The notes: generated by a model from the letters alone, not told the origin. Counted from the first letter of the stretch, positions 13,086-58,656 are shown. The stretch is 64,000 nucleotides of DNA from Candidatus Liptonbacteria bacterium (GCA_016182095.1 JACOXY010000011.1:3794-67793); one strand, 5' to 3'. Translations and numbers: made by a program.

Positions 13086-13091
13086 AATAAA

Positions 13092-13991: not shown

Positions 13992-13995
13992 AAGT

Positions 13996-14703: not shown

Positions 14704-14714
14704 AGTATATAAAA

Positions 14715-15536: not shown

Positions 15537-15567
15537 TGTTTAAAATATTTAAAAAATAAGATCGCGG

Positions 15568-16164: not shown

Positions 16165-16194
16165 ATAAATTGATTTTGTTCGTATCTCAAGCTC

Positions 16195-36195: not shown

Positions 36196-37365
36196 CTAAA
36201 TTAAGGAGTAGAGTATACCGAGCTCACCCTCGTTTAATTCCGAAGTGTTGCCAAAGTAGAAGCCGTTTTGATGAACAAAGCGGGCATTGGGACAGTCGCC
36301 ATGCGAATTGATATACTTCTTATAAAACGGCTGTGAGGTAATATCTCCTGATACAATGGGCCGAATTTCAACTCCGTTTTCGGTAAATTTATTTTTATAA
36401 CTTTCAAATGTGGTTTTGTCTTTACAAATTATGGGCATAGCAAAAGCCGAGACTGTATCCATGTGATCAACCGAAAGCGCGAGTAGGTCGTTATTTTCTT
36501 TTTTCTTTTTGTTGAAAAATTTGAAATTTTTCTCTCTGGACGCGACAACTTCATCCCAATATTGAATCTGTAAATTACCTAAAAAGCCGTTAATTTCCGT
36601 AGGGCGCACATTGTACCCCAAATCAAAAAAGGAGTAGAGCGCGTAAAAAGGATCTGTGCCATGCTCCTTATGTAAAGCTTCGAGTTTTTCTTTCGGGAGA
36701 TTTCTTCCCCAGCCATGCGCGCGAACTTTTAAGAGCATGTGGTAAAGCTCTTCGTCATCAGTACATACCATACCTCCCTCAAGCGTTGAAAGATGATGGC
36801 CAAGAAAAAAAGAAAAGGTCGAGGCAAGGCCAAAATTACCAAGCAGTCTGCCATAAGCTTTTGAGCCTAGTGATTCACAATTGTCTTCCAGAAAAACAAT
36901 TTCGCGCTCCTCACATAAACTCCTTATTTCTTTTATATCATGGCAAAAACCAAGCGCGTTAGTAAGAAAAAGGCCACGGATTTCCTTAAGATAGGGTTCC
37001 AGTTTAGAGCTTGAAACATTTAGTGATTCTTTTTCGCAATCAATCGCCACCGGCACAAGTCCCAACTGCAGAAGGGGCATGACATTGGTAGACCACGTTA
37101 TAGCCGAAACTCCGACTTTATCGCCCCTCTTCAATTTGCCTAAATTTAAAAGCGCCTGAACAAGAATAAGGTTGGCCGATGAGCCGCTGTTTACAAATAC
37201 TGCGAACTTTCTTTCTTGTTTTTTGGCGAAAGCTTCCTCATATTTTTTGCATTCTTCCCCCATGCTGAAAAACTCTGTCCGCATTACAAAATCCGCGAGC
37301 TTCCTCCGAGTCTCATTTTCATCCATAAATGCCGATTTTATTAGTTTTATTTTAAAATTGTTCAT
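36196..37365 (-). CDS. DegT-family PLP enzyme with His in place of the catalytic Lys: probable nucleotide-sugar 3-dehydratase (ColD/E1-like)
   Basis: STFSFFLGHHLSTLEGG occupies the position where aminotransferases have SF(Y)xxK. His-for-Lys is the established signature of ColD and E1 3-dehydratases. It is translationally coupled to gmd. Confidence 0.55.
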   Translation of the reverse strand: MNNFKIKLIKSAFMDENETRRKLADFVMRTEFFSMGEECKKYEEAFAKKQERKFAVFVNSGSSANLILVQALLNLGKLKRGDKVGVSAITWSTNVMPLLQLGLVPVAIDCEKESLNVSSSKLEPYLKEIRGLFLTNALGFCHDIKEIRSLCEEREIVFLEDNCESLGSKAYGRLLGNFGLASTFSFFLGHHLSTLEGGMVCTDDEELYHMLLKVRAHGWGRNLPKEKLEALHKEHGTDPFYALYSFFDLGYNVRPTEINGFLGNLQIQYWDEVVASREKNFKFFNKKKKENNDLLALSVDHMDTVSAFAMPIICKDKTTFESYKNKFTENGVEIRPIVSGDITSQPFYKKYINSHGDCPNARFVHQNGFYFGNTSELNEGELGILYSLI

Positions 37366-38432
37366 GCGAAGTTTTCTCTTTTTACACCCACAGCTTTCAA
37401 ATCATGCTCCAGCATTATTTTTACAAGTTCTTCAAAGCTAGTCTTGGGGTGCCATCCTAGTTTTTGTCTGGCTTTGGTAGCATCCCCGACAAGATTTTCA
37501 ACGTCTGCCGGGCGATGATAGTAGGCATCAATAGCGATAACAGTTTTCCCCGTTTTTACATTTACCCCCCTCTCGTCCATGCCCTCGCCTTCCCATATCA
37601 AATTAATCCCTAAATATTTACAGCACGCTTCGACAAATTCTTTTACGGAGCGGCTCTTGCCCGTAGCTATAACATAATCATCCGATTCTTTCTCTTGGAG
37701 CATGCGCCACATAACTTCAACGTAATCTTTAGCATATCCCCAATCTCTTTTGGCGTACAAGTTACCAAGATATAATTTATCGGCTTTCCCAGCCATAATA
37801 TTCGCCAAACTCATTGTTATTTTTCGCGAAACAAAATTTTCTCCTCGCCTTGGCGACTCATGATTAAAAAGAATGCCGTTAGTCGCGAAAAGGTTATATG
37901 CTTCGCGATAATTCACAGCCGCGTAGTATGCAAAAACCTTAGCCACTCCGTAGGGACTGCGTGGATGAAAAACAGTTTTCTCGTTTTGCGGAGGAGGAGC
38001 GGAACCGAACATTTCGGAGCTTGATGCCTGGTAAAATTTTGTTCCGGGGCTATCGTGACGTATAGCATCCAAAAACCTAATCGTGGAAAGTCCGGTTGCG
38101 TCACTCGTAAACTCTGGGGTTTCAAAACTAATCCCCACGTGGCTTTGGGCCCCGAGATGGTAAACCTCGTCCGGTTTTAAAGAATTAACAAGGTGCCTGA
38201 TCGAGCTTGAGTCCGTTATATCTCCATAATGCAAGATGATCGGCTGATTCACGCTTACCTTACCTTTGGTGCGGTCCAGAACCAGATGCTCGATGCGACC
38301 TCTGTTAAAAGTGCTGGCCCGCCTCACCAAACCGTGCACTTCATAGCCCTTCTCCAGCAAAAATTCTGCCAGATAAGATCCGTCTTGTCCGGTTATGCCC
38401 GTTATAAGCGCTAATTTTTTATTCCTCGACAT
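37362..38432 (-). CDS. gmd: GDP-mannose 4,6-dehydratase
   Basis: ALITGITGQDGSYLAEFLLEKGYEVHGLVRRASTFNRGRIEHL is a near-canonical Gmd N-terminus, and the full-length SDR has the Gmd C-terminal extension. Confidence 0.8.
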   Translation of the reverse strand: MSRNKKLALITGITGQDGSYLAEFLLEKGYEVHGLVRRASTFNRGRIEHLVLDRTKGKVSVNQPIILHYGDITDSSSIRHLVNSLKPDEVYHLGAQSHVGISFETPEFTSDATGLSTIRFLDAIRHDSPGTKFYQASSSEMFGSAPPPQNEKTVFHPRSPYGVAKVFAYYAAVNYREAYNLFATNGILFNHESPRRGENFVSRKITMSLANIMAGKADKLYLGNLYAKRDWGYAKDYVEVMWRMLQEKESDDYVIATGKSRSVKEFVEACCKYLGINLIWEGEGMDERGVNVKTGKTVIAIDAYYHRPADVENLVGDATKARQKLGWHPKTSFEELVKIMLEHDLKAVGVKRENFA

Positions 38433-38441
38433 ATTTAAATT

Positions 38442-39422
38442 TTACACATTGTTATTTTGAAGATTTTCCAGATCCGCATCAACCATCATTTTTAGCAGAC
38501 TCTTAAAATCAGTTTGAGGAACCCACCCTGTAACTTGCTTAATCTTGGTAATATCCGCGCGCCACTCAAAAGCCTCGGCTGGGCGCACGAATTTTTCATC
38601 TACTACAACATACTTCTTCCAATCCAATCCGACAAATCCGAATACCGCGTCCAGAACTTCCCTCACCGCATGCGTCTCTCCAGTACCAATAACATAATCA
38701 CCGGGCTTATCCTGATTAAGGATTAACTGCATCGCTTCAACATAATCGCCGGCGAAACCCCAATCCCTTTTTACATTAAGATTCCCAAGGCGCAACTCTT
38801 TTTGCATCCCCATTTTTATTTTTGCCGCCGCCAGAGTAATTTTTCTTGGCAAAAATTCCACATCAACATACGGCGAAATATGGTTAAAGATTATCCCGGT
38901 ACAAGCAAAAATTTTATGCACCTCGCGATACATTTTTGCTAAATTAAGTCCAGCTGCTTTTGAAATTCCGTAGGGACTCGTAGAATTAATTGGGGTCTCT
39001 TCGTTTTGGGGAGAAGTTTTAGCATTGCCAAAAATCTCGCTGGTGCTGGCAAAGAAAAACTTGGCATCGGGTTTTAGCTCTTTAACAGCCGAGAGGAGAT
39101 AGTGAGTGCCATTGGTATTGCATTTCAGCGTGCCAAATTCATCTTCAAACGATGGACCAATGCCAGCGATGGCCGCTAAGTGATAGACTTCATCCGGTTG
39201 TGCCTTCGCAATCAACTTACACATTGTGGGGTAATCAGCAACATCGCCCCTGTGAAGTTTTATGCTGTCTAAAACATGGCTTACCTTGTGAAGACGCGGA
39301 TTAGACTTATCAGACGCAGTCCCTCTAATCAAACCATGCACTTCATATCCTTTACCCAAGAGAAGTTTCGCCAAATACGGACCGTCTTGCCCGGCAACGC
39401 CTGTTATTAGGGCTTTTTTCAT
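38442..39422 (-). CDS. Gmd-family NDP-sugar 4,6-dehydratase/reductase paralog
   Basis: ALITGVAGQDGPYLAKLLLGKGYEVHGLIRGTAS... is Gmd-like, but the sequence is divergent. It could be a heptose-specific dehydratase (DmhA-like) or an Rmd-like reductase. Confidence 0.65.
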   Translation of the reverse strand: MKKALITGVAGQDGPYLAKLLLGKGYEVHGLIRGTASDKSNPRLHKVSHVLDSIKLHRGDVADYPTMCKLIAKAQPDEVYHLAAIAGIGPSFEDEFGTLKCNTNGTHYLLSAVKELKPDAKFFFASTSEIFGNAKTSPQNEETPINSTSPYGISKAAGLNLAKMYREVHKIFACTGIIFNHISPYVDVEFLPRKITLAAAKIKMGMQKELRLGNLNVKRDWGFAGDYVEAMQLILNQDKPGDYVIGTGETHAVREVLDAVFGFVGLDWKKYVVVDEKFVRPAEAFEWRADITKIKQVTGWVPQTDFKSLLKMMVDADLENLQNNNV

Positions 39423-40399: not shown

Positions 40400-41284
40400 A
40401 TGAACTCTAAAACTATGCTTTTCGGGGGGAGCGGTCTTTTGGGCCCAGTTATTTTAGAGAGGTATCCGGAAATTATCTCGGTGGGGAGAAGCGCGCCCCC
40501 AAATCACATAAAAAACCGGCACATTAACATAAAAGATTTGGACGATTTAAGCGCTTTGGACTCACTTGACTTCGATAAAGTAATTTTCTTAATAGGAAAT
40601 TCCAATCACCATCTCATTAATGCGGAAGCGGCCATGGGAATTGATTTTAACGTTACACCACTTAAAAAAGCTCTGTTTTATTTTCAAAAAAGAAATATTA
40701 AAAAATTGATTTGCTTTTCGACTATCCTACTTTATGACGCGGAAAAAATTAAACCACCGGTAGACGAAAGCCAACCCACCAATCCTTTTGCGAATGACTA
40801 TATCTTTAGCAAGTATTTAGCAGAAGAAGTTGCAAATTTCTATAAAAACAAGGTGCCAATCATTACTATACGATTAAGCAACATTTATGGCCCAACAAAG
40901 CTAACGCGTCCCGATCTTATACCAACCTTAATCCAAGGTCTTCTATCAAAGGATGAGATAACCGTGTGGAGCAAAAAACCCGTGCGTGATTTCCTTTATC
41001 TACCCGACGCGGCCAGCGCAATCGTAAAACTTTTGGATACCGATTACACAGGAGTGGTTAATTTGGGAACCGGGAACTCCATAAGCGTCGGGGAGATTGC
41101 GGATATTTTAGAAAAGATTTCCGGCAAAAAAATTACCGATCTTAATAAAGAAGTGTCCGGTCCGATGAATTTACGCTGTGATATTTCACTTTTAAAAAAA
41201 TTAACCGGCTGGGAACCGGAACACACTACGGAAGAGGGTTTGCGCCTAACTTATAATCAGATGAAAGAGTGGGGCGTTAAATAA
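40400..41284 (+). CDS. NAD(P)-dependent epimerase/dehydratase-family (SDR) protein
   Basis: MLFGGSGLLG Rossmann motif, ...Y..SK... catalytic region, about 290 aa. Confidence 0.55.
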   Translation: MNSKTMLFGGSGLLGPVILERYPEIISVGRSAPPNHIKNRHINIKDLDDLSALDSLDFDKVIFLIGNSNHHLINAEAAMGIDFNVTPLKKALFYFQKRNIKKLICFSTILLYDAEKIKPPVDESQPTNPFANDYIFSKYLAEEVANFYKNKVPIITIRLSNIYGPTKLTRPDLIPTLIQGLLSKDEITVWSKKPVRDFLYLPDAASAIVKLLDTDYTGVVNLGTGNSISVGEIADILEKISGKKITDLNKEVSGPMNLRCDISLLKKLTGWEPEHTTEEGLRLTYNQMKEWGVK

Positions 41285-42040: not shown

Positions 42041-43255
42041 ATAAAAAGTATATAAGTAAGCCGCGATAGCGATAACAATAATAAAAATTTGCAGGGTGGC
42101 TGCATAATCCCATCCGGCTAATCGCAGGACAAACGGTAGCCAAGCTAAAGACATATGGATAGCAGACAATTTTATCAGCAAATTCCTGTTAATTTTTAAA
42201 AATTCTCGCATCAGAAATGGCACTGTTAAAATAAAGGCCGATGCGGCATAGCCAATAAATCTTTCGGCGCTTGGAGTCACAAAAATACTTATAAGGTAAG
42301 AGCTCGCGCCATAGGCTACGGTAACAATAAACCAAAATGGAAGCCTGCGGAATATTTCTTGGAAGTTGCGCCGAATTAGATAAAAAATTACTACCGGCAT
42401 TATTCCTAAAAGGGTGAGCAGGGCAACGAAAGTCGCGAGCATCGCTTCGGGCATAAATCCGCACGAACCGACCCGCTCGATAGAACCAAGCGGTAGCCAC
42501 GAAGGCAGAGCAAAATTATAAATTGGATCGCAATTAGCTAAAGTATTCGACCATAAGCTGATTCCTAATACATTATTAAAAAAGTAATAAGGTATCTTGA
42601 GGGCAAAATATAAAAAACTTTGAAGGTTGTGCGCGTTAGGAATGCCTAAGCTATTTATTTGTCCAGTCACAAAAATGGAAATAGCAATTATAAAAAAAGT
42701 TCCCAGGGCCAGCATCCTCTTCCCTTTGTATATACTTAGACATAAGAAAATTAGGCCGAAGAGAATGATTGATTCGCGGGTTAAAAACATAAAAAAAAGC
42801 GTCAGTAACGCCGGAATCTCCTGGTTGTAAAAAAGAAAAACAAAAAATAAAGTCGATGAAAAAAGAAAGAAAGCATCCGGCAAAAGATACTCGCTCGATA
42901 TCCCCGCAAAGTACGGCATAAAAAGAAGCGGGGCAAGCATGAGGGAAAACGGCAAAATTTTTTTAAGAACAACCGCCAAACACAAAAAAAGCAAATATAG
43001 GGCGGCGATCGTTATGAAAAGGAATGAATGCTCCGCGTCTATACCGAATATGTAATGCGCCATGCCTGCCAAAAAGGGAAAAAAAATCCTGCCCGAAAAC
43101 GGCTGAATCACATCCTGAATATCGCCTTGAAAAATTTTGAGATACCACTCAACATCTCCTCCATAAATCGGATTGAGCGGCCAGTTTAAAGCGACAATCA
43201 AAGTTGCCAAAAACAAAGCCGCAAGAAAAAAGTTTAAACTTTTTGAAGAAGTCAT
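41990..43255 (-). CDS. polytopic membrane protein (12+ helices), third member of the YGGD-motif family; candidate polymerase/GT-C
   Basis: N-terminus LNPIYGGDVEWY resembles GGDSAYY in 19908..21491. It lacks the C-terminal soluble domain and overlaps the convergent GT2 gene by 50 bp. Confidence 0.45.
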   Translation of the reverse strand: MTSSKSLNFFLAALFLATLIVALNWPLNPIYGGDVEWYLKIFQGDIQDVIQPFSGRIFFPFLAGMAHYIFGIDAEHSFLFITIAALYLLFLCLAVVLKKILPFSLMLAPLLFMPYFAGISSEYLLPDAFFLFSSTLFFVFLFYNQEIPALLTLFFMFLTRESIILFGLIFLCLSIYKGKRMLALGTFFIIAISIFVTGQINSLGIPNAHNLQSFLYFALKIPYYFFNNVLGISLWSNTLANCDPIYNFALPSWLPLGSIERVGSCGFMPEAMLATFVALLTLLGIMPVVIFYLIRRNFQEIFRRLPFWFIVTVAYGASSYLISIFVTPSAERFIGYAASAFILTVPFLMREFLKINRNLLIKLSAIHMSLAWLPFVLRLAGWDYAATLQIFIIVIAIAAYLYTFYLLKGALVQGGRQALAP

Positions 43256-44307
43256 TTATTAAAAAATCTAAGCAATAACTCATCAACTCTCTTGGGGAAT
43301 AACTCTATCCCAAACTTACTTAGAACTTTTTGCCGCAAGAAAGCGCGGTCAAGCAGCTCTTTTCTGACTTTTCCCGTTAACACATTCACTATCGACTGCG
43401 CGATTTCATGAATATCATCCGGATTGACGAGGAGCCCGATCTCGCCTCCCAAAAGAGGAGTGCCCGAACCATCCTGATTGCCGGCAATAACAGGAATACC
43501 GCAGGATAAGGCCTCAACATAAACAGCCGGCGCCCCCTCGGCTTTTGAAGGCATGGTAAAAACATCCGCAAGATTATAATAATCAACTATTTCTTCGTCG
43601 GGAATAAAGCCGGCCACGATAACCTTGTCCCCAAGATTCATTGCGTCTATTAAATTTCGTACTCGAGGCATATCATCACCCTTGCCGCCCAGCAAATAAA
43701 TCGCTTCTGTCACAGCGCTTAATATTTCCGGCATAGCTTGTATTACACGATCATACCCTTTATAACCTTCGAGCGACGAAAGCCTTGCCACCGTAAAAAT
43801 AACTTTTTTACCCTTAAGTCCGTATCTATTAATAAGCAACGTCGGTTTTCCCTTGGGAGCGAACCTGGAGCCATCAACGGGATTATAGAGAAAATAAATC
43901 TTATCTTTTAACTCGGGGAGCTGCGCTATCATTTTTTCACCGGTAAACTCTGCGACTGTAGTTATTACTTTAGCTTCCAGCAGGCTTTTTCGCTGTAAAA
44001 AGCTTCTAATATTCCAAACATCAATTCCGTGAGTGCAAACTATATACTCGTAGCCGAATAGTTTCTTGATAAAGAACCCGATTGGCGAATAATTAACATG
44101 GGCGCAAACAATTACATCGGGTTTAAAACTCACGCTTTTAAAAAAAGAATTCAAAACAAACTTAATGCCGGCCCAAGCTCCGCCGCTTTTTATTTCAACC
44201 AGAACTACGCTGTCACCGCGCGCTTTTAGAGCGGCAATAAACTTCCGGTTATATTGCTGAATACCCCCCAAAGAGTTTGTGTCAGAGGTAATATACAAAA
44301 TTTTCAT
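43252..44307 (-). CDS. glycosyltransferase family 4
   Basis: ...FTMPSKAEGAPAVYVEALSCGIPVIAG... is the GT1 C-terminal domain. Confidence 0.75.
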   Translation of the reverse strand: MKILYITSDTNSLGGIQQYNRKFIAALKARGDSVVLVEIKSGGAWAGIKFVLNSFFKSVSFKPDVIVCAHVNYSPIGFFIKKLFGYEYIVCTHGIDVWNIRSFLQRKSLLEAKVITTVAEFTGEKMIAQLPELKDKIYFLYNPVDGSRFAPKGKPTLLINRYGLKGKKVIFTVARLSSLEGYKGYDRVIQAMPEILSAVTEAIYLLGGKGDDMPRVRNLIDAMNLGDKVIVAGFIPDEEIVDYYNLADVFTMPSKAEGAPAVYVEALSCGIPVIAGNQDGSGTPLLGGEIGLLVNPDDIHEIAQSIVNVLTGKVRKELLDRAFLRQKVLSKFGIELFPKRVDELLLRFFNK

Positions 44308-44320
44308 ATTTTAAGATTCT

Positions 44321-45259
44321 TCAGATTAAACCCTCGGCTTTTAAAAGCATCTCCAACCCTCCTCTTAAAGTAACTTTCGGCCGCCAGTCCAAATCCTGCA
44401 TAATTTTGTTGTCGTCCCCCACCAAGCGGTTACGCTCAAGGTCTCCCCGCGAACGGCTCTCTTCGGAGATAAATTCTACTTCTCTTCCGGCATTCTTTAA
44501 AAGATCTTTTATAATATCGGTAACTTCTTGGATGGAATTCACGGCATTAGCGCCAACATTATAAATAGCCCCCGGCGTGCCGCGCGCGAGAAGTAGCGCG
44601 AGAACGTCCGCAACTTCCGTAACATAGATAAAGTCCCTTTCAGGAAAAAGATTGCCGAGTTTTATGCTATTAACGCCCGATTTCAACTGCGAAACAATTT
44701 CCGGAATTACCTGGGGAATTCCGGCAAATGGCCCATAAATACTAAATGGCCGCAAAATAAAATAAGTCATCCCATTTTTTTCACACTCTTCCCGCGCCGC
44801 CCCCTCTCCTTCTAACTTGCTTTTGCCATAAACTTCAAAGGGTTCGGTGGGGTGGGTTTCTTTTATGGGCTCGTCCGATGGCCTGTATACGGAAGAGGTT
44901 GAGATATGTATAAATCGCGGCTTGTCTTGAAGTCTAGCGGCGGCATGAATAACGTTTTTCGCTCCGAGAACGTTAACGGCAAATGCCTTTTGGGGATCTC
45001 TGTTGCAGTCCGGTATAAAGTGAAGCGCGGCCAAAAAATAAACGGCGCCCGGCTTAATCTCATCTGTAAAGTTTTTTACCGCCTCCATATCGCGCACATC
45101 TCCCCGCTTAATCACTATCTTATCTTTCATGTCCTCTAAGTTAGACATTCTGCCGGTTGAAAAATCATCAAAAACCGCCACCGAATGTCCTTCATTTAAT
45201 AATTTCCTTGCAAGATTATTTCCCACAAAACCAGCGCCGCCGAAGAGTAAGGTCGTCAT
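44321..45259 (-). CDS. NAD-dependent NDP-sugar epimerase/reductase (SDR)
   Basis: MTTLLFGGAGFVGNNLARKLL...YGKSK... are classic extended-SDR motifs. Confidence 0.7.
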   Translation of the reverse strand: MTTLLFGGAGFVGNNLARKLLNEGHSVAVFDDFSTGRMSNLEDMKDKIVIKRGDVRDMEAVKNFTDEIKPGAVYFLAALHFIPDCNRDPQKAFAVNVLGAKNVIHAAARLQDKPRFIHISTSSVYRPSDEPIKETHPTEPFEVYGKSKLEGEGAAREECEKNGMTYFILRPFSIYGPFAGIPQVIPEIVSQLKSGVNSIKLGNLFPERDFIYVTEVADVLALLLARGTPGAIYNVGANAVNSIQEVTDIIKDLLKNAGREVEFISEESRSRGDLERNRLVGDDNKIMQDLDWRPKVTLRGGLEMLLKAEGLI

Positions 45260-45445: not shown

Positions 45446-46171
45446 TTATGAAAAAAATTCGTGAGCGGAAGCATAGCGCTCCGGTGTGCCGATATCCAAG
45501 AATTTTCCGTCAAATATAAATCCAGTAGCCCTCCCGGCCAACCTGGGAAAAACGTCTCGTTCTAAAGAAAACTTTTCGTTGTCGGGAAAATACTTTGCAA
45601 TTTTTTTGTTCATAACATAACAGCCGGCATTTACAAAACTATCCGTCTTCTCCTTATTTTTCTCCGCAAAGGCAGTCATTTCTCCGCTCCGCGCCAATGT
45701 CACGTTTCCACAATCGGCTCTCCCGTTTTTTTCTGCAAGTGCCAGAGAAAGGGGGGGCTGTTTTTTTAGATAATTTTCATAAAACTTTTGAAAATCTAAT
45801 TTAGGAAACGTATCACCATTTATGACAAAAAAGTGCTTGCTTTTTACGCAGGGCAAGGCAAGCTTCACCGCCCCCCCTGTATCCAGGGGCGACTCTTCCT
45901 TAGAAAAAACAAATTCGGCCTCTTGCGCATAGCGGCTTTTTTTAAAATATCTCTCTATGTGCTCCCCCATGTGTCCAGTGCAAAAGATAATCCGGCGAAA
46001 GCCCTGCCGCAGGAGTTCCTTCACCACAAGCGCGAGAAACGGCTTTTTGCCTAATTCCGCCATTGGTTTTGGTCGATCTGAAATAACCGGCCGGAGCCGA
46101 GTGCCTAATCCGCCGCACAAAATCAAAATATCAATGTTATTAAGCAAGTTGAGGGTGCTTTTTCTGCTCAT
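45446..46171 (-). CDS. sugar-1-phosphate nucleotidyltransferase (HddC/ManC-like)
   Basis: ILCGGLGTRLRPV...KPM is the canonical NTP_transferase loop. It lies adjacent to a GHMP kinase and contains two intact G/C7 homopolymer tracts. Confidence 0.7.
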   Translation of the reverse strand: MSRKSTLNLLNNIDILILCGGLGTRLRPVISDRPKPMAELGKKPFLALVVKELLRQGFRRIIFCTGHMGEHIERYFKKSRYAQEAEFVFSKEESPLDTGGAVKLALPCVKSKHFFVINGDTFPKLDFQKFYENYLKKQPPLSLALAEKNGRADCGNVTLARSGEMTAFAEKNKEKTDSFVNAGCYVMNKKIAKYFPDNEKFSLERDVFPRLAGRATGFIFDGKFLDIGTPERYASAHEFFS

Positions 46172-47141
46172 AGATTATTTGGCTACCGTCATTTTCGAAA
46201 CTAAAGGGAATATGAAGCAGTTTGCTTAAGCTTGTTTTAATTCGGCCGTGCAGTTCTGGATTAGCGAAAAATAGCAGAAATCCTCCGCCTCCCGCGCCCA
46301 GAAGTTTCCCCCCTGAAGCGCCGGCGCCTCTTCCGGCGTCGTAGGCTTCGTCAATAAGAGAGTTGGTTATTTTTGAAGACAGGCTTCTTTTTAACTGCCA
46401 AGTTTCGTGAAGCATTTTTCCAAAATCGTTTAGGTCTCCTCCTTGCAAAACTTTCACTGCGTCATCCACCATGGTGAGCATCGCTTTTAATTCGTTTGAT
46501 TTTTGCGGAGTATTTTTTACCTGTTCAGCCGCTATTTCCGAGGCATAGCGGGAACGGCCAGTGAAAAATAGCATTAGGTGATCCTGAAAAAATTTTTTTC
46601 TCGCATCGCTTAAAATTATGGGCTCGATTTTTATCTTCTCTTTTCCGCCAAAAGAAATTTTATTTAAACCTCCGTAAGCGGCGGCAACCTGATCTTGGCA
46701 GCCAACATTTTCCCTTAGTAAATTCTGCTCAATGTGTATCGCATCCTTGGCAAGCCTTTCCCGACTTACTCTTTCTCCTTTCAGAGCGCTCAAGGCGTGC
46801 AGAAGACCAACGGTGAAGGAGGAGCTAGAGCCCATTCCGGAACGAGCCGGCAAATCGTCAAAATTATGGATTTCAACCCCATCTTTTATGCCCACAAAAT
46901 TTAAGGCGTGTCTTACAACCGGATGCTCTATCTCATCTACTGAATTCACAAGTTCAACTTTTGAATAAGCAATCCTTGAGCGGTGATCAAAAAACTGCGG
47001 CAAAAACCTCGCGCTGATATGGCAATATTTATCTATTGAAGTGGAAAGCACGGAACCGCCGCCACTGCTTTCAAACCAGGCTGGATAGTCGGTGCCTCCG
47101 CCAAAAAAAGAAATTCGGAGAGGACTTCTGGTAATTATCAT
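46140..47141 (-). CDS. GHMP-family sugar kinase (HddA-like heptose-7-phosphate kinase candidate)
   Basis: PARSGMGSSSSFTVGLLHAL is GHMP motif II. Operon context: nucleotidyltransferase plus GmhA/GmhB elsewhere in the island. Confidence 0.65.
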   Translation of the reverse strand: MIITRSPLRISFFGGGTDYPAWFESSGGGSVLSTSIDKYCHISARFLPQFFDHRSRIAYSKVELVNSVDEIEHPVVRHALNFVGIKDGVEIHNFDDLPARSGMGSSSSFTVGLLHALSALKGERVSRERLAKDAIHIEQNLLRENVGCQDQVAAAYGGLNKISFGGKEKIKIEPIILSDARKKFFQDHLMLFFTGRSRYASEIAAEQVKNTPQKSNELKAMLTMVDDAVKVLQGGDLNDFGKMLHETWQLKRSLSSKITNSLIDEAYDAGRGAGASGGKLLGAGGGGFLLFFANPELHGRIKTSLSKLLHIPFSFENDGSQIIYEQKKHPQLA

Positions 47142-47233: not shown

Positions 47234-47269
47234 TAAAAAACCCCGAACCAATGTTCGGGGCGCTTTTTT
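47234..47269. terminator. bidirectional intrinsic terminator
   Basis: Stem ccccgaac/gttcgggg with a 4 nt loop, flanked by an A-run upstream and a T-run downstream. Confidence 0.55.
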
Positions 47270-48194
47270 ATGTCCAGTTCAAAATTTTTTGCGTGACACT
47301 CTCGACATCTAATCCATATTTCTTCCAAATAACTTCTCTGCCGCCAAGATCGAAAACAAAGGTGTCCCTCTGTCCGATGCGAAGAAGAGGCTTCCTATAA
47401 TCGTTATCCACAAAAACTTCCGCAATGGCACTGCCCATGCCTCCAGCCAGAAAATCTTCTTCAAGAGTGACAACCTTGTCCACTCCTTCCAGATATTGGA
47501 ACAGAAAATTCTGGTTAATGGGCTTTAGGCGGAATAGATCAATTACTCGCGCGCTGACTCCTTTTTCTTCAAGCTGGTCTGCAACCCTACACGCCTGATG
47601 AACCATGACACCAGTAGAGATAATGGCAACATCTTTGCCTTTACACGCCAAACCAACACCGGAGCAAAAATCAATCTTATTGTTTTCATAAAGATTCGGC
47701 AGGTAACCCCTGTCAAACCTGATGTATTGGGGACCGTTATGGTTGTAAGAAATTTCGGCCAAAGCTTCCGCGGTCATATTATCGGCAGGACTCCAAATCG
47801 TAAGATTAGGCCAAACGCGCATCGCGGCTATTACTCCAACTGCGTGGTGAGTCGGCCCCATGATGTCATAAGCATAACCAGCTCCTACGCCAAGCGCAGT
47901 GATGGGTAGATTCATGGCGCACATATCAAGCTTTACGAACTCCAGGCATCTAAGCGTGATAAAAGGGTCAATGGCATAAATCCAAACCCTTCTTCCTTCT
48001 AAGGCGTGGCCGCAAGCCATTCCAACCGCCTGCTCTTCGGCAATTCCGACATTTCGAAACTGTCCGGGAAGTTCGGAAATTTGGTCCATGCTTTTGGCGC
48101 CATTATCGGCGCTGATCAGCATCGTTTTCTTATCTTTCAAAAAGACTTTATATAATGCGTCAAAAAAGGCATCCCGTTGAACTAAGCCCTTCAC
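47268..48194 (-). CDS. transketolase, C-terminal (pyrimidine-binding) subunit
   Basis: ...AEEQAVGMACGHALEGRRVW..., ...MRVWPNLTIWSPAD... match the Transket_pyr and C-terminal domains of split transketolases. Confidence 0.8.
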   Translation of the reverse strand: MKGLVQRDAFFDALYKVFLKDKKTMLISADNGAKSMDQISELPGQFRNVGIAEEQAVGMACGHALEGRRVWIYAIDPFITLRCLEFVKLDMCAMNLPITALGVGAGYAYDIMGPTHHAVGVIAAMRVWPNLTIWSPADNMTAEALAEISYNHNGPQYIRFDRGYLPNLYENNKIDFCSGVGLACKGKDVAIISTGVMVHQACRVADQLEEKGVSARVIDLFRLKPINQNFLFQYLEGVDKVVTLEEDFLAGGMGSAIAEVFVDNDYRKPLLRIGQRDTFVFDLGGREVIWKKYGLDVESVTQKILNWT

Positions 48195-49084
48195 AGCGCA
48201 CCTCCTTTTAAAGCTTGGGCTTCGAGTTTTTGTTCTTCTTCGCGAAGGCCCGCCATTACTGCTTCAAGGATCTCGCCTGTAGGAACTTTATAGTGCCACC
48301 CGCGTTTTCCTTCAATTGCCGAAGCTCCCTTGCCTTTAATGGTTTCCATTAGAACAGCAAGCGGCTTACTGGAGTTTCTGCCACGGATACTGCTTAAAGC
48401 TTTAAAAATTTCCGGGAACGAATGTCCGTTTGCCGTACGAGTTTCAAAACCGAAAGCTTGAAATTTTTCTGGTAAAGGATCCATATAAACGTCTCGCTGA
48501 GTTTCACAGCTGTCCGTAAATCCGATAGTAAATTGATGATTTCTGTTTACAATCAAAACCAAATTATTAAGCCCCAGGCGGCGCGCGGTTAGCATCGCTT
48601 CCCAGTTTGAGCCTTCATAAAGTTCACCATCTCCCGTAAGACAAATAGTGAGCCACGACTTTCCATCAAGCTTGGCTGAATCAGCCATGCCGGTCGCAAT
48701 CGGCAAACCATGGCCTAAGGATCCGGTCAAAACATCAATACCTTTGGTGTGTGGCTCGGAATGAACGCCTAAAGTGCTTTCTTCACCCAAAAAATTATCA
48801 AGGTCTTTAAGCGGGAAGAATCCAACATCGGCAAGGACAGGATAAAGGCCGAGGCCCGCCTGTCCTTCGCTCAAGATAAATCTATCGCGATTTTCCCATT
48901 GAGGATTTTCGGAATCAAAGTTCAAAATCTTCCCGTGATAAAGCGCGACAAAGAGCTCTGCCAATGAAAAGGCCGTGGTTACGTGGCCACTCTTACCCTT
49001 AACCGCCATTTCCAAAACTGTTCTGCGCAACCAATTTGCTTTTCTTTTTAAGTAAAGGAGTTCGCCCTTATTTATCTTTTCCAT
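48191..49084 (-). CDS. transketolase, N-terminal (TPP-binding) subunit
   Basis: GHVTTAFSLAELFVALY..., GSLGHGLPIATGMA, ICLTGDGELYEGSNWEA are the TPP-binding blocks. It overlaps the C-subunit gene by 4 bp. Confidence 0.8.
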   Translation of the reverse strand: MEKINKGELLYLKRKANWLRRTVLEMAVKGKSGHVTTAFSLAELFVALYHGKILNFDSENPQWENRDRFILSEGQAGLGLYPVLADVGFFPLKDLDNFLGEESTLGVHSEPHTKGIDVLTGSLGHGLPIATGMADSAKLDGKSWLTICLTGDGELYEGSNWEAMLTARRLGLNNLVLIVNRNHQFTIGFTDSCETQRDVYMDPLPEKFQAFGFETRTANGHSFPEIFKALSSIRGRNSSKPLAVLMETIKGKGASAIEGKRGWHYKVPTGEILEAVMAGLREEEQKLEAQALKGGAL

Positions 49085-49238: not shown

Positions 49239-50753
49239 ATGGGTCGGAATATGGATGTACTGCTAATAGCTCCGGGTGATAGAATCGAAATTTACCAGGC
49301 TCTTGGAAAAAGTCAGAGCGCCTTGGAAACGCCGGTCTGGGCCGGACTTCTGGCAACTTTCTTAAGAAAAAAGGGTTACTCGGTACACATAATCGACGCC
49401 AATGCGGAGGGGCTTGAAGCCAACGAAGTAGCCAGGCGCGCCGCGGAAGTAAATGCCGTTTTGAATGTAATCGTGTGTTACGGCCACCAGCCGAACGCCT
49501 CGACTCAAGTCATGCCTCACGCGGGAAGAATTGTAAGAGCAATAAAAGAAGAAAATTCGAGCCGCAAAGTCATTATGGTGGGTGGCCATGTAGCGGCTCT
49601 GCCGGAACAAACACTACGCGAAGAGATGGCGGATTTCGTCTGTACTGGAGAGGGGCCTTATACGCTGTCTGCCCTTACCGAAGCTTTGAAAAACAACGCT
49701 ACGGATTACAAGGAAGTTCCCGGGGTTATTTATAGGGAAGATGGTGGCGTTATCAGAACCAAGCCCGCAAAAAATGTGACCAAGCTTGATGAAGAAATGC
49801 CGGGAATGGCTTACGACCTGCTGCCGATGCATCTCTACAGAGCTCACGGATGGCATTGCTATGGGCACGACGACAAACGTGAGCCCTACGCATCACTTTA
49901 CACGACGCTGGGATGCCCATTTCACTGCACATTTTGTCCAATTCAGGCGCCATTCAAAGAGGGAGAGAGTGCGCTGGGGTACAAGCCCTCCCTTAATAGT
50001 TATCGTAGGTGGAGCGCCAAAACTATTGGGGATCAACTTGAACTTTTGGCAAAAAATTATGGAATTTATAATGTTAAATTCGCGGATGAAATGTTTGTTT
50101 ATCACAAGCGCCATGTTTTAGAGCTCTGTAATGATATTATCGGCCGCGGGCTTGATCTAAATACATGGGCCTACGTGCGCATCGATACTGCCGGAGACGA
50201 CGAACAGCTTGAGTTGCTGCGGAAGGCGGGCGTGCGCTGGCTCTGCCCGGGAATCGAGTCTGGCGACACCAAGGTGCGAGATGATGTGGATAAGAGCTTT
50301 GCTCAAGAGAGCATTTTTACCACCATAGAACGCATCAGAAAACATGGCATTTATGTTATCGGCAACTATTTATTCGGCCTTCCAGAAGATGATTTGAATA
50401 GCATGCAGAAAACGCTCACACTTGCCATGGAACTAAATTGCGAGCATGCCAACTTCTATTCGGCGATGGCATATCCCGGATCACAGCTTTATCGGTACGC
50501 CTTGGAAAAGCAATGGCCCCTGCCAAAGAGCTGGGGTGGATTTTCCCAGCATTCCGTGGATTCAGCTCCGCTTCCCACAAACCACCTCACAGGAGCGCAA
50601 GTGCTTGAATTCCGCGACTGGGCATGGACCACATATTTCACAAATCCTAATTACTTGGCAATGGTTGAACGAACTTTCGGCAAAAACACCGCCGACAAGA
50701 TCAGGAAGAAAGCCACAGTTAAACTCGTAAGAAATAATGTCCCCGTAAAGTAA
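49239..50753 (+). CDS. B12-binding-domain radical SAM enzyme (class B)
   Basis: The N-terminal cobalamin-binding-like domain is followed by LGCPFHCTFCP (CxxxCxxC) and an SPASM-less C-terminus. It has a gagagga SD. Confidence 0.75.
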   Translation: MGRNMDVLLIAPGDRIEIYQALGKSQSALETPVWAGLLATFLRKKGYSVHIIDANAEGLEANEVARRAAEVNAVLNVIVCYGHQPNASTQVMPHAGRIVRAIKEENSSRKVIMVGGHVAALPEQTLREEMADFVCTGEGPYTLSALTEALKNNATDYKEVPGVIYREDGGVIRTKPAKNVTKLDEEMPGMAYDLLPMHLYRAHGWHCYGHDDKREPYASLYTTLGCPFHCTFCPIQAPFKEGESALGYKPSLNSYRRWSAKTIGDQLELLAKNYGIYNVKFADEMFVYHKRHVLELCNDIIGRGLDLNTWAYVRIDTAGDDEQLELLRKAGVRWLCPGIESGDTKVRDDVDKSFAQESIFTTIERIRKHGIYVIGNYLFGLPEDDLNSMQKTLTLAMELNCEHANFYSAMAYPGSQLYRYALEKQWPLPKSWGGFSQHSVDSAPLPTNHLTGAQVLEFRDWAWTTYFTNPNYLAMVERTFGKNTADKIRKKATVKLVRNNVPVK

Positions 50754-50823: not shown

Positions 50824-51402
50824 TTAGGGGGTTCTTTTTAAAATATTTTCAACTTTTTTCACAAAAGAAGCCATCCCCTTTCTCATGATTATTTTCTTAA
50901 GTTTCTGTTTTTCGCTGTCAAACTGGATATAGCCCACATGGTCTTCGCCTGGATACTTGAAATCTATTGAAACATCTTCCCAAAGTTTTTTTAGACGATC
51001 ATAGACGGCGATATCAGCGGGGTCGGAGAGAAGCGCGTCCCCTTTGGTTCTGCGCCGCATACGCTCTTTGGCAATCTTTTCGCTACAGACCACTTCTAAT
51101 ACAAGCGCCCGCTTCCCGCAGCCAGAAGCTACGCCATATAACTGATGCCTTCTGAAAAGATAGCGGTTCACAGAATCAATAATAACGCCCTTGCCCAACC
51201 GCAGATATTTTGCCGCGAGAACATCTATCTCCCGTAGTGTTGCGTCCTGTGATTTGGGCATACGCTTTATGCCACGCCTGCGGCGAATCTCATTTTGGTC
51301 TATAAGAATATAACTCGATAACTCCTTTTCCAGGAGGCGAGCTCGAACAGTTTTCCCCGCTCCAGGAAGGCCGCAGATCAATATAAGAAACTTTTCTTGC
51401 AT
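50824..51402 (-). CDS. P-loop kinase (AAA_33 / zeta-toxin-like fold)
   Basis: ILICGLPGAGKT Walker A; about 190 aa single domain. Confidence 0.5.
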   Translation of the reverse strand: MQEKFLILICGLPGAGKTVRARLLEKELSSYILIDQNEIRRRRGIKRMPKSQDATLREIDVLAAKYLRLGKGVIIDSVNRYLFRRHQLYGVASGCGKRALVLEVVCSEKIAKERMRRRTKGDALLSDPADIAVYDRLKKLWEDVSIDFKYPGEDHVGYIQFDSEKQKLKKIIMRKGMASFVKKVENILKRTP

Positions 51403-52049: not shown

Positions 52050-52829
52050 TTGGGCGTGAAAACATCGGAAGTTGGTTCGTTCACAATTAATTTAGCAAAA
52101 AGAGCGGGGGGGCTTATTTTTGATTTCCATAAACGAAGACTTGAGCAAATTTGGGCAGATCGCACTCACTTTAAAACCGCAGCTGACGACGCCAGCGATA
52201 AGTTAATAAGAGAAGCTATTGCCGCTGCTTTTCCTCATCACAACATACATTCCGAAGAGGGTGGATATTTAAATAGAAATTCCGAATACACCTGGGTATG
52301 CGACGCCGTAGACGGAACTATAAATTTATGGAGTGGGTTTACAGATCACTTTGCGGTATCCTTAGCCCTTTGTCAGAATAATGTACCCATTGTTGGTGTG
52401 GTTTATGCCCCCAAAAGACATGAGTTATATTTCGCAGAACAGGGGTTGGGCGCCTATTTAAACGGCAAACCAATTTGTGCTTCAAAAGAAATTAATATTA
52501 ACCATGTTTTAATGGGAGTGGATGCGGGGAAAAAAAATAGAACAGATCATCTGCTAATTTTGGATAGTCTGCTCCAAGATAGCGGAATTAATTGTGACCT
52601 AAGAACGGGCTGCGCTTCTGTGCCGCTCTGTCTTGCCGCAAGCGGAGCAATTCATGCTTATATGGCAACGAGCTTAGAACCAGAAGACATGGCGGCAGCA
52701 GTTATTATAAACAAAGAGGCCGGCAACAAAGTAACCAACATAGAATGCGGAGATTGGAAATTGGGTGATAAATCAATTTTGACTGCAAACCCAGAATTAC
52801 ATCAAAAAATTTTAAAGTTAATAAGTTGA
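52050..52829 (+). CDS. inositol-monophosphatase-family phosphatase (CysQ/SuhB-like), GTG start
   Basis: WVCDAVDGTINLWSG matches the IMPase W-x-DP-x-DGT motif; downstream block ...GVDAG... Confidence 0.6.
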   Translation: MGVKTSEVGSFTINLAKRAGGLIFDFHKRRLEQIWADRTHFKTAADDASDKLIREAIAAAFPHHNIHSEEGGYLNRNSEYTWVCDAVDGTINLWSGFTDHFAVSLALCQNNVPIVGVVYAPKRHELYFAEQGLGAYLNGKPICASKEININHVLMGVDAGKKNRTDHLLILDSLLQDSGINCDLRTGCASVPLCLAASGAIHAYMATSLEPEDMAAAVIINKEAGNKVTNIECGDWKLGDKSILTANPELHQKILKLIS

Positions 52830-52915
52830 TAATTCCCTTATCAAAATTGCGCTTCAGGCGCAATTTTTTGTTCTTGACCTTAGCGAATAAAAAAGTTAGG
52901 ATACGAACGTACATT

Positions 52916-53422
52916 ATGGCTCAAATTGAACCAAAAGACCTTCCTCTAATCAGGGAAAAACATTGCAATCAAAAAATCGTTTATTGTTCGGGTGTTTTTG
53001 ATCTTATACATCCGGGACATGTGCTGTTTTTTGAGGATTGCAAAAAATTTGGGGATGTTTTAGTTGTTGGAGTGGGCGGGGACACAAATTTAAAAAAAAT
53101 AAAGGGCAATGACCGGCCGATTATGAATAAATACATGCGCATGAAAATGGTCGATTCACTAAAACCAGTTGACTATTGTTTTTTGAGTTCCCATACGCCA
53201 GTCAATCATCCGTTAGAATTTATTGAAACGGTTTTTAAATTATTGAAGCCCGATACATACATAATCAACGCAGATGCTTCAGAAATTCTCTATCGCGAAG
53301 AAATGGCAAAAAAAAATAACGTTGGTTTAAAAATTTTACCTCGGTGGTGCCCTGATGAATTTGAAAATATCTCAACTACTAAACTTATAGAAAAAATTAA
53401 AGGCGGAAATAGGACTTTTTGA
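52916..53422 (+). CDS. cytidylyltransferase-family protein (HxGH nucleotidyltransferase, TagD/RfaE-domain-II-like); start set to the MAQIEP ATG
   Basis: CSGVFDLIHPGHVLFFEDCKKFGDVLVVGV contains the HxGH motif of CTP_transf_like enzymes. A possible promoter TTGACC-17-TAGGAT lies at 52873-52901. Confidence 0.55.
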   Translation: MAQIEPKDLPLIREKHCNQKIVYCSGVFDLIHPGHVLFFEDCKKFGDVLVVGVGGDTNLKKIKGNDRPIMNKYMRMKMVDSLKPVDYCFLSSHTPVNHPLEFIETVFKLLKPDTYIINADASEILYREEMAKKNNVGLKILPRWCPDEFENISTTKLIEKIKGGNRTF

Positions 53423-53477
53423 CGAAATAAGTAAAGTTTGTTATATTCCGTGTAGCATACAGTATTGGGAGGGAGAA

Positions 53478-54047
53478 ATGGGGAAGCCTACATTGAAAGC
53501 TCCGGTGCCCGGCGAGATCCGTACGGTGATTAAAGCATATGGAAGACACGTGTATTTTCAAAACTTTTTATTACCAAATGGGCAAACAATAGAATACCTT
53601 CTTCATGGTGGCGGTTCCGCAAATGCCGTAATGATTCTAGCAATCACAAAAGCCGGTAACGTTATCGCGGTAAATCAGTTTCGCTATGGCCCAAAAAATT
53701 TTGTTTTAGAGGTTCCCGGAGGAAACAAAAAAGGGGCGCAGAGCCTGGAAGAAGCTTTATCTGCCGAACTAATGGAAGAAACTGGATATGAGCACGGAGA
53801 ATTGATATGGTTAAGTAATAATGGGGTTTATTTTGACCCTTCATGTTCCGGGAGCCAATTTGCCGCCGCGCTAGCGATAGACTGTGTTCAGACAGCGGAA
53901 CCAAATCCAGAACCCAGTGAAATTCTGGAAACAATAGAAATTCCGCTAAAAGATTGGGTAGCTAAAATTTTTAGAGGAGAGATTAGAGACTCCAAAACTA
54001 TCACCACAACTTTTCTGGCTCTCCCGCGCTTGGGTTGGAAAATTTAG
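53478..54047 (+). CDS. NUDIX-like hydrolase (divergent Nudix box)
   Basis: EVPGGNKKGAQSLEEALSAELMEETGY is Nudix-box-like, with RE replaced by AE; it has a gggaggg SD. Confidence 0.45.
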   Translation: MGKPTLKAPVPGEIRTVIKAYGRHVYFQNFLLPNGQTIEYLLHGGGSANAVMILAITKAGNVIAVNQFRYGPKNFVLEVPGGNKKGAQSLEEALSAELMEETGYEHGELIWLSNNGVYFDPSCSGSQFAAALAIDCVQTAEPNPEPSEILETIEIPLKDWVAKIFRGEIRDSKTITTTFLALPRLGWKI

Positions 54048-54876: not shown

Positions 54877-54906
54877 GCAGCGGACCATGCGCTGCTTTTT
54901 TATTTT
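54877..54906. terminator. bidirectional intrinsic terminator
   Basis: gcagcg-(7 nt)-cgctgc followed by tttttttattttt; it also sits at the 3' end of the convergent gmhB-like gene. Confidence 0.55.
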
Positions 54907-55496
54907 TCTAATATATATCTCACGGCATCCAAAGCGTTTTGCGCTTTAGATGTGGGCTTAACGTCATTCTTAAAGGCATTGCCCGACTTTGGAACTCTAC
55001 TGTTTGCCAGAGATTCAATCATAATAGTCTTGCAGCCCGCAGCCTCGCCAGCGGCAATGTCGGTAACCATATCGCCCAACATCCAGCTTTTCTTTAAATT
55101 AATATTCAAATCTTTGGCCGCCTTAATGATCATGCCCGGAGCCGGCTTGCGGCACCCGCACACTGTCCTATATTTTAAGGCGCGCTCCGGAACATCGGGG
55201 TGTGTTTCCGGATGATGCGGGCAAAAATAAAATCGGTCAATAAGACCTCCTAATTTTCTATTAATAAATTCGTGAAGTTCAACCACATCTTCGTAACTTA
55301 CAATACCGCGCGCTATGACCGGCTGATTGGTAATAATAACATTCAGGTAACCGCGCCCCTTAAGGGCATGAAGAGCTTCGCGGACACCGTCCACAATCAC
55401 AACGTCTTCTTTTTTATATATAAATCCATAAGCCTCATTGCCCTTAGGAAGTTCAAGGATAACTCCGTCCCTGTCAAAAAAAACAGCTTTATTCAT
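54900..55496 (-). CDS. gmhB: D,D-heptose 1,7-bisphosphate phosphatase (GmhB, HAD family)
   Basis: FFDRDGVI...ITNQ...CPHHP...CGCRKPAPGM...GDMVTDIAAG is the characteristic GmhB HAD plus Zn-finger pattern. Confidence 0.75.
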   Translation of the reverse strand: MNKAVFFDRDGVILELPKGNEAYGFIYKKEDVVIVDGVREALHALKGRGYLNVIITNQPVIARGIVSYEDVVELHEFINRKLGGLIDRFYFCPHHPETHPDVPERALKYRTVCGCRKPAPGMIIKAAKDLNINLKKSWMLGDMVTDIAAGEAAGCKTIMIESLANSRVPKSGNAFKNDVKPTSKAQNALDAVRYILEK

Positions 55497-55504
55497 ATTA
55501 GAGA

Positions 55505-56662: not shown

Positions 56663-56673
56663 TAAGGCTGGCT

Positions 56674-57612: not shown

Positions 57613-57669
57613 AGTGTTATTCTATAGAAATTTAAAAAAATGGCAACCGTAAAATAATCGCCGCATAAT

Positions 57670-58653: not shown

Positions 58654-58656
58654 TTT

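Follow-up and report, generated by a model that had tools for sequence, protein, structure and literature searches.

A stretch of 64,000 nucleotides from a Candidatus Liptonbacteria bacterium (GCA_016182095.1 JACOXY010000011.1:3794-67793), referred to below as the window, encodes homologues of the four enzyme families that make GDP-heptose, an operon of heptose-tailoring homologues, and a protein in which a phosphoheptose isomerase (GmhA) is joined to a short relative of UDP-glucose dehydrogenase (UGDH). We favour, with moderate confidence, the reading that an alpha-anomer GDP-heptose route and its tailoring enzymes are encoded within a surface-glycan locus, and that the fused dehydrogenase is a separate, intact enzyme. 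The gene fusion is unusual and probably incidental. A first-pass annotation, made from the sequence alone, had described a pair formed by a kinase and a nucleotidyltransferase, two GmhB phosphatases, and a single UDPG_MGDP_dh domain fused to a SIS-type isomerase, an arrangement that it called unusual. Most of this description stands: all five open reading frames (ORFs) lie where the annotation placed them, those of the pair have their domains and overlap, both phosphatases are HAD-IIIA proteins with GmhB as their best NCBIfam match and GmhB-type Zn loops, and large-scale searches for the fusion, including in related genomes, added only one further lineage (contig L001, 59% identity). The number of domains had to be revised, as the dehydrogenase half comprises two, the NAD-binding and the central domain.

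The kinase and nucleotidyltransferase genes are both carried by the minus strand and share 32 nt. Among NCBIfam models, the kinase scores best with HddA (133.7 bits), followed by Fkp (95), a further model (59) and galactokinase (53). Its closest matches in the PDB are likewise heptose kinases (3k85, E 4e-40; WcbL 4usm, 8.4e-34, and 4usk, 5.7e-33; Campylobacter jejuni 4n3o, 3e-31), ahead of other GHMP enzymes such as fucokinase (5e-16), mevalonate kinase (2e-14) and galactokinase (1e-6). By these scores and E-values, rather than by a tree, the protein sides with the heptose kinases and not with the galactokinases, and it contains the phosphate-binding motif PARSGMGSSSS. A homologue with 41% identity is found in another locus of the Candidate Phyla Radiation (CPR), L002, in a compact heptose cluster (12405-16807) composed of a GT9 heptosyltransferase, the GHMP kinase, a stand-alone GmhA, a short-chain dehydrogenase/reductase (SDR) and a 402-aa NTP_transferase-HAD (HddC-GmhB) fusion. 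The nucleotidyltransferase has NF049965 (HddC) as its best NCBIfam model (155 bits) and matches Yersinia pseudotuberculosis HddC (6jq8/5xhw) at 1e-39, versus about 1e-22 for ManC-type mannose-1-phosphate guanylyltransferases, which makes it a candidate heptose-1-phosphate guanylyltransferase.

The two phosphatases, GmhB1 and GmhB2, are 33% identical to each other. GmhB1 reaches 131.7 bits with NF006506 and 120.5 bits with TIGR00213, GmhB2 reaches 137.1 bits with NF006506, and both pass TIGR01656 and TIGR01662; the alpha-specific GmhB model NF050049 gives 92 and 106 bits for the two proteins against a cutoff of 250. Their nucleophile motifs DxDG read FDRDG and LDRDG, and their Zn loops (CPHH...CGCRKP in GmhB1, CPHH...CFCRKP in GmhB2) are of the type typical of GmhB and HisB-N phosphatases. 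A homologue of GmhB2 (60% identity) directly adjoins the second instance of the fusion on L001.

The isomerase half of the fusion is a well-preserved GmhA domain. It matches TIGR00441 over profile positions 2-154 of 154 (198.3 bits), scores 193.7 bits with NF010546, and aligns with residues 10-191 of the 198 of Burkholderia pseudomallei GmhA (2xbl, E 5.6e-45). Its H324, E328, Q436 and H444, which include the Glu and His residues singled out for checking by the first-pass annotation, align with the Zn-binding and catalytic positions of GmhA, which we take to be H64, E68, Q175 and H183 in B. pseudomallei and to include E65 and H180 in Escherichia coli; the phosphate motifs GNGGS and STSG are kept as well. 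The nearest relatives of this domain are stand-alone GmhAs of about 187 aa with up to 66% identity, and a tblastn search of the 64 kb found no other GmhA or UGDH-like sequence.

A split transketolase, whose two genes overlap by 4 nt, lies 126 nt upstream of the kinase gene on the same strand, its subunits scoring 212 and 141 bits with NF004559. It is possible that this pair provides a dedicated supply of sedoheptulose-7-phosphate, but it may equally be a housekeeping enzyme; a linkage between transketolase and heptose genes was not found in the other loci examined.

Independently of these genes, the enzymes of the operon at 54900-59856 argue that GDP-heptose would be synthesized here. This operon, the best corroboration of the pathway, had been overlooked by the first-pass annotation, as had the split transketolase. 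In order of transcription, the operon consists of a ColD-type homologue, a 4,6-dehydratase-like SDR, an SDR resembling 6vo6, a GT2 glycosyltransferase and GmhB1, with intergenic gaps of 3-57 nt (8 nt between GT2 and GmhB1). The ColD-type protein matches ColD (2gms) with an E-value of 6e-48 (167 bits) and E1 (3bcx) with 6e-36, and a His of the window protein aligns with ColD His188, the residue mutated in 3b8x. The 4,6-dehydratase-like SDR contains the motifs STSEVYG and YAVSK, and its best PDB match (E 1e-60, 209 bits) is 7us5, a protein entitled “GDP-D-glycero-D-manno-heptose 4,6-dehydratase.” The third enzyme matches 6vo6/6vo8 over 310 residues with about 60% identity (E 6e-117, 393 bits); 6vo6 is presumably C. 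jejuni Cj1427, a GDP-heptose C4-dehydrogenase. SDRs of this 6vo6-like family are very widespread, with 8000 matches at E<1e-40 and 67-84% identity. The function of Cj1427 has been described (PMC10680097), and the tailoring chemistry of GDP-heptose in C. jejuni is documented (PMC10440746; PMC10680097). The SDRs encoded at 44321-45259 and 40400-41284 are candidates for a C4-reductase. For the five ORFs of the first-pass annotation, the homology to their respective families is strong and is not due to chance.

The fusion gene is an intact ORF. Its N-terminus, MKKTKIGIVGLGFVGGA, is that of a normal Rossmann GxGxxG fold, and the SIS domain begins, after a linker of about nine residues, exactly where the UDP-binding domain of a UGDH would start. 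The second instance (P0002, on L001) shares the junction and the linker length, and retains the Met with which GmhA formerly began (...KKEKMALNQYIKE). The architecture is thus known in two lineages, and is real but rare: no third dehydrogenase-GmhA instance was found in a search of 5.8 billion clusters, nor any further such architecture among the top 150 matches of a search of 1.84 billion representatives. A narrow gapped DNA pattern (MIKYF...435 nt...GNGGS), which matched both known fusion instances when checked locally, returned from metagenome contigs only two chance matches without a dehydrogenase, a weak negative given how narrow the pattern is.

The dehydrogenase module combines the NAD-binding (PF03721) and central, catalytic (PF00984) domains, and the C-terminal UDP-binding domain PF03720 is unmatched. 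Its GxGxxG motif spans G10-G15 and its catalytic Cys227 lies in the signature GGGCFPKD (residues 224-231). T88, E111, K166, N170, C227 and D231 align with T124, E157, K210, N214, C268 and D272 of the GDP-mannose dehydrogenase GMD (1mfz), so that the catalytic Cys and Lys, for which an alignment had been suggested earlier, are in place; Arg207 and K230 are also present. Across a 67-member family alignment (54-71% identity), G12, G15, E111, K166, R207, C227, K230 and D231 do not vary, and N170 is nearly invariant. These features mark the module as a constrained and probably active enzyme, not a degenerate scaffold. The 50 best PDB matches in a Foldseek search with its predicted structure are all three-domain UGDHs (TMq 0.78-0.85, TMt about 0.5).

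Most homologues of the module are stand-alone proteins of about 260-290 aa, typically about 265, as are nearly all of the best 120 of 3340 matches. Members with 54-72% identity come from Liptonbacteria, Jorgensenbacteria, Nealsonbacteria, Paceibacteria and Nanoarchaeota, and more distant ones from Uhrbacteria, Saccharibacteria, Dehalococcoidia, Chloroflexia, Poseidoniales archaea and a few proteobacterial metagenome-assembled genomes (MAGs). Lengths in 80 GTDB loci are cleanly bimodal: short members end at most 30 residues past the central domain, whereas canonical UGDHs run on for at least 126. A scan of contigs for gene neighbourhoods recovered at least 15 short-family loci among the matches listed; most of the other matches were canonical UGDHs. 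The short members lie in glycan loci, where their neighbours vary and include Wzy, a flippase, glycosyltransferases, a glycoside hydrolase and methyltransferases. Of about 17 independent loci, a small sample, only 3-4 have heptose genes within 10 kb. One recurrent neighbour is an SDR that has a TviC-like protein as its top NCBIfam match, or a strong, non-top match of the UXS/ArnA type; since such SDRs are of the uronate-processing type, they fit a role of the module in the formation of uronic acids. Elsewhere the module has fusion partners at either of its ends, namely GT2, GT4, SDR, NTP_transferase, APS kinase or a D-Ala-D-Ala-ligase-type ATP-grasp domain, with APS kinase, GT4 and NTP_transferase as N-terminal partners. 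A literature search found no paper on truncated or short UGDHs in CPR bacteria.

In the route that we favour, sedoheptulose-7-phosphate, possibly provided by the adjacent split transketolase, would be isomerized by the GmhA domain of the fusion, and the HddA-like GHMP kinase would phosphorylate the product at O1. The 7-phosphate would then be removed by a GmhB-type phosphatase, more likely GmhB2, with GmhB1 as a second copy, and the HddC-like enzyme would presumably supply the GDP moiety. The operon would tailor the resulting sugar through its C4-dehydrogenase-like SDR, 4,6-dehydratase-like SDR and ColD-like C3-dehydratase, which correspond to the enzymes that C. jejuni uses to make D-glycero-, 6-deoxy- and 3,6-dideoxy-heptoses, and the neighbouring GT2 would transfer the tailored sugar. 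Residues 1-266 of the fusion most likely form an NAD-dependent and Cys-dependent enzyme that catalyzes its own uronic-acid-type reaction, a four-electron oxidation of an alcohol to an acid, with another sugar of this glycan as the substrate. On the simplest account, its join to GmhA probably arose by loss of the stop codon between two neighbouring genes, and the module is probably not coupled to heptose synthesis. In this reading, homology, conserved catalytic residues, gene order and the recurrence of the fusion are observed, whereas all enzymatic activities, the choice of nucleotide, the part played by the transketolase and the dehydrogenase substrate are inferred.

Several observations weigh against this reading. 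None of the five pathway proteins attains its NCBIfam equivalog cutoff: the kinase falls far below that of NF049969 (HddA; 600 bits) and the nucleotidyltransferase below that of HddC (300), both phosphatases miss the cutoff of NF006506 (178), and the GmhA domain narrowly misses that of TIGR00441 (209.45). Because of this, the case for orthology is built on rank order, on conserved residues and on context, which all agree; sub-cutoff scores are expected of CPR sequences, and the four activities that the first-pass annotation had assigned to the window remain the predicted ones, with families, rank order and residues that fit. Among the tailoring enzymes, the 4,6-dehydratase-like SDR is also close to the reductase Rmd (2pk3, 3e-56), such that dehydratase and Rmd-type reductase are not separable by score alone; E. 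coli GDP-mannose 4,6-dehydratase follows at 1.7e-35. Unlike in the C. jejuni set, no C3/C5 epimerase, i.e., no cupin or RmlC-type ORF, was recognized among the scanned ORFs of the window. As for the dehydrogenase, the motif NPEFLRE has become NPEFLRA, the change of the second Glu to Ala being the sole systematic one in the subfamily; the module is also devoid of the nucleotide-binding domain found in every solved relative, which makes a nucleotide-sugar substrate uncertain. Its substrate could be a nucleotide sugar bound in another way, a phosphosugar or a lipid-linked sugar. Finally, the persistence of the fusion in two lineages that are 59% identical could reflect functional coupling instead of accident.

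Such a coupling was anticipated by the first-pass annotation, which proposed that the fusion might link heptose formation to oxidation at C6/C7. The short dehydrogenase would borrow a substrate-binding domain, with SIS replacing the UDP-binding domain and presenting a heptose or sedoheptulose phosphate, or GDP-heptose, for conversion to a hepturonic or heptonic acid derivative. The exact replacement of the missing C-terminal domain by SIS after a short linker, and the equal linker length in both lineages, speak for this idea, and so does the nature of the other partners, as GT2, GT4, NTP_transferase and SDR are also sugar- or nucleotide-binding folds. The module further retains E111, K166, N170, R207 and the GYGG loop (222-225) that precedes C227, which we take to be the contacts of UGDH to the sugar and the diphosphate. 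However, most members of the family stand alone and must work without a fused partner, the many unrelated partners sit at either terminus, unlike a fixed replacement geometry, and in most of its loci the short dehydrogenase has no heptose gene closer than 10 kb. In both the substrate and the product of GmhA, C7, which bears the only primary alcohol that a UGDH-type enzyme could oxidize, is phosphorylated, and the GmhA domain is an ordinary one, close to stand-alone isomerases. To our knowledge, no glycan contains a hepturonic acid. The proposal is therefore not borne out, and coupling is regarded as unlikely.

It is also unlikely that the proteins of about 265 aa are Cys-dependent sugar dehydrogenases that do not recognize a nucleotide handle at all, their substrates being phosphosugars, polyprenyl-diphosphate-linked sugars or sugars supplied by a partner. 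In the fusion, GmhA/SIS would then supply a substrate derived from heptose, giving an oxidized heptose new to glycans.

Distinctly doubtful is the idea that the sugar activated by the kinase, the nucleotidyltransferase and the HAD phosphatases is not a heptose, and that the GmhA domain serves an unrelated purpose. The scores of the kinase and of the nucleotidyltransferase, far below the HddA and HddC cutoffs, would agree with it, as would the distance of 14 kb between their genes and GmhA and the capacity of the locus to make other GDP-sugars, illustrated by the canonical GDP-mannose 4,6-dehydratase at 37362-38432. Against it, the rank order strongly favours heptose enzymes, the homologous kinase of L002 belongs to a canonical heptose cluster, and three homologues of GDP-heptose tailoring enzymes share the window with two GmhB-type phosphatases.

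The other proposal of the first-pass annotation was a degenerate NAD-binding scaffold, i.e., a dehydrogenase half that is a catalytically dead remnant and serves GmhA only for NAD binding, oligomerization or support. In addition to the missing nucleotide-sugar-binding domain and the lost second Glu of NPEFLRE, an NAD domain shortened by about 30 residues (its Pfam match starts at profile position 72) and a score of 151 bits with the nucleotide-sugar dehydrogenase model TIGR03026, below the cutoff of 189.8, could be read as signs of decay. The residues that matter tell otherwise: GxGxxG, Thr88, Glu111, Lys166, Asn170, Arg207, Cys227 and Asp231 are all present, most of them invariant in the 67 members, and the free-standing proteins of this large family are strongly conserved. 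The AlphaFold2 model of the dehydrogenase is a compact and confident two-domain structure (pLDDT 92, pTM 0.89). Moreover, one member of 765 aa (P0230) contains a LAGLIDADG intein whose insertion site lies exactly in front of the catalytic Cys (...GAGGY / CLAPEE...THN / CFPKD, with slashes at the splice junctions). A dead remnant is thus highly improbable.

It is extremely unlikely that the fusion gene is artefactual or a pseudogene, produced by a sequencing or assembly error or by a recent loss of a stop codon without a functional product: the sequence derives from a MAG, the architecture is known in two lineages only and, at 540-580 of L001, a frameshift within an A-homopolymer run (ccaaaaaaaaac) splits off the N-terminal domain of P0002, but an identical, uninterrupted 454-aa ORF is found in the NCBI MAG and in independent assemblies of SRR12113424, SRR12113430 and SRR12113384, with constant neighbours in the three run assemblies (the carbamoyltransferase gene upstream, FkbM and GmhB2 convergent), L001 reads through the same junction despite its divergence, its frameshift lies about 150 codons upstream of that junction and is probably a sequencing error, not a real split, and all functional residues are kept in both halves.

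Some 60 ORFs scanned with Pfam and NCBIfam show that the whole 64 kb is one very large glycan-biosynthesis region, with a GC content of 38-50% and no tRNA genes. Its main features are listed in Table 1.

Table 1. Features of the 64-kb window, with coordinates counted from its first nucleotide
Feature	Position	Strand	Evidence
Glycosyltransferases GT1, GT2, GT4	many across window		Pfam/NCBIfam
DegT-type pyridoxal-phosphate enzymes	three in window		Pfam/NCBIfam
Nucleotidyltransferases and several SDRs	across window		Pfam/NCBIfam
HddC-like nucleotidyltransferase, 241 aa	45446-46171	-	PF00483, E 1.6e-26, 93.9 bits
GHMP kinase, 333 aa	46140-47141	-	GHMP_kinases_N and _C (PF00288, PF08544)
Split transketolase, C-terminal subunit	47268-48194	-	Pfam Transket_pyr and Transketolase_C
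Split transketolase, N-terminal subunit	48191-49084	-	Pfam Transketolase_N
GmhB1, HAD-IIIA phosphatase, last gene of the tailoring operon	54900-55496	-	Best NCBIfam match GmhB
6vo6-related SDR, candidate GDP-heptose C4-dehydrogenase	56674-57612	-	PDB match
GDP-heptose 4,6-dehydratase-like SDR (GDP-mannose 4,6-dehydratase/Rmd family)	57670-58653	-	PDB match
ColD-type C3-dehydratase-like protein, pyridoxamine-phosphate-dependent (PMP) type	58657-59856	-	PDB match
GmhB2, HAD-IIIA phosphatase, linked to the fusion gene	59966-60538	+	Best NCBIfam match GmhB
FkbM-family methyltransferase	60535-61257	+	TIGR01444, 51.4 bits, cutoff 37.7
Dehydrogenase-GmhA fusion, 454 aa	61319-62683	-	PF03721 and PF00984, then SIS_2/TIGR00441
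GmhA domain of the fusion, residues ~267-454	61319-61885	-	TIGR00441
Short UGDH-like module of the fusion, residues 1-266	61886-62683	-	PF03721 and PF00984
NodU/CmcH-type carbamoyltransferase, runs past the window end	62699-64000	-	Pfam Carbam_trans_N and Carbam_trans_C

The carbamoyltransferase gene lies 16 nt upstream of the fusion gene and is full length in independent assemblies (595 aa in L086). The FkbM gene overlaps the end of GmhB2 and is convergent with the fusion gene. The window holds a second gene of each type, for a NodU/CmcH-type carbamoyltransferase at 6147-8024 (-) and an FkbM methyltransferase at 11225-11947 (-). The presence of one of each beside the fusion gene suggests O-carbamoylated and O-methylated sugars, which by analogy could include the heptose. 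Downstream of the nucleotidyltransferase/kinase pair are the SDR gene at 44321-45259 and a GT4 gene at 43252-44307.

Other genes are interspersed with those of the heptose route. A B12-binding radical-SAM enzyme is encoded at 49239-50753 (+), with an HpnJ-like protein as its best match (161 bits, cutoff 578), and an AAA_33 P-loop kinase at 50824-51402 (-). Adjacent genes at 52050-54047 (+) code for an inositol-monophosphatase-family protein, a protein with a cytidylyltransferase fold resembling RfaE domain II (52826-53422, 88 bits, cutoff 181.5) and a NudE-like Nudix hydrolase. A beta/ADP-heptose branch was considered for the RfaE-domain-II-like gene and set aside, the window having no PfkB-type kinase. 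The group at 36196-39422 (-) brings together the canonical GDP-mannose 4,6-dehydratase (457 bits), a second SDR of the same family (344 bits) and a DegT aminotransferase, and is a separate GDP-6-deoxyhexose or amino-sugar branch within the locus. Farther away, a 716-aa protein with a C-terminal phosphoribulokinase/uridine-kinase domain is encoded at 17075-19225 (-), and a 751-aa GT1 with a thymidylate-kinase-like domain at 28937-31192 (-).

The GDP-heptose pathway itself is textbook chemistry. A heptose pathway with Campylobacter-like tailoring in Liptonbacteria would be further evidence of elaborate surface glycans made by CPR bacteria, which are relevant to the attachment of these episymbionts to their hosts. 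A more useful lead comes from the dehydrogenase half, which represents a large, highly conserved and uncharacterized two-domain family of CPR, DPANN, Poseidoniales and a few other lineages. Its substrate, once determined, would fill a gap in glycan annotation for thousands of genomes, and so far the only functional hints about the family come from its fusions, with GmhA in this window and with GT2, GT4, SDR or NTP-transferase elsewhere.

Compared with the UGDH, AlgD/GMD, TviB and WecC family, the module shares the Rossmann NAD domain, the helical central domain and the full catalytic set, but differs by the absence of the PF03720 domain, a shorter N-terminal domain and the motif NPEFLRA; the short two-domain form is represented by neither a solved structure nor a curated family. 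Fusion among neighbours of a pathway is common in heptose biosynthesis, as in the kinase-adenylyltransferase HldE/RfaE, and also affects GmhA, which is found fused to PfkB kinase, CTP_transf_like, HAD or GT4 domains among the matches listed in the search of 1.84 billion representatives. Here as in these other fusions, the junction falls at the natural N-terminus of GmhA. Whereas the other partners are heptose-pathway enzymes or glycosyltransferases, the present one is a dehydrogenase without a known heptose role.

The known GDP-heptose pathways, such as those of C. jejuni (Cj1424, Cj1425, Cj1152, HddC), Y. pseudotuberculosis (HddC) and B. pseudomallei (WcbL, GmhA), use the same four enzyme families. 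As in those pathways, the enzymes of the window are each closest to solved heptose enzymes, the Zn-binding and catalytic residues of GmhA are kept, and the kinase and nucleotidyltransferase genes adjoin each other with an overlap; as in C. jejuni, the phosphatase gene lies apart from the other pathway genes (PMC10680097). What sets the window apart from those pathways is that its enzymes are very divergent versions from a CPR bacterium, that its GmhA is joined to a dehydrogenase, that two GmhB paralogues are present and that a split transketolase is encoded directly upstream of the kinase. A further parallel is the capsular tailoring of C. jejuni: homologues of Cj1427, of 7us5 and of the ColD-like C3-dehydratase of serotype HS:5 are all three encoded in one operon of the window, together with GmhB1 and a GT2 glycosyltransferase.

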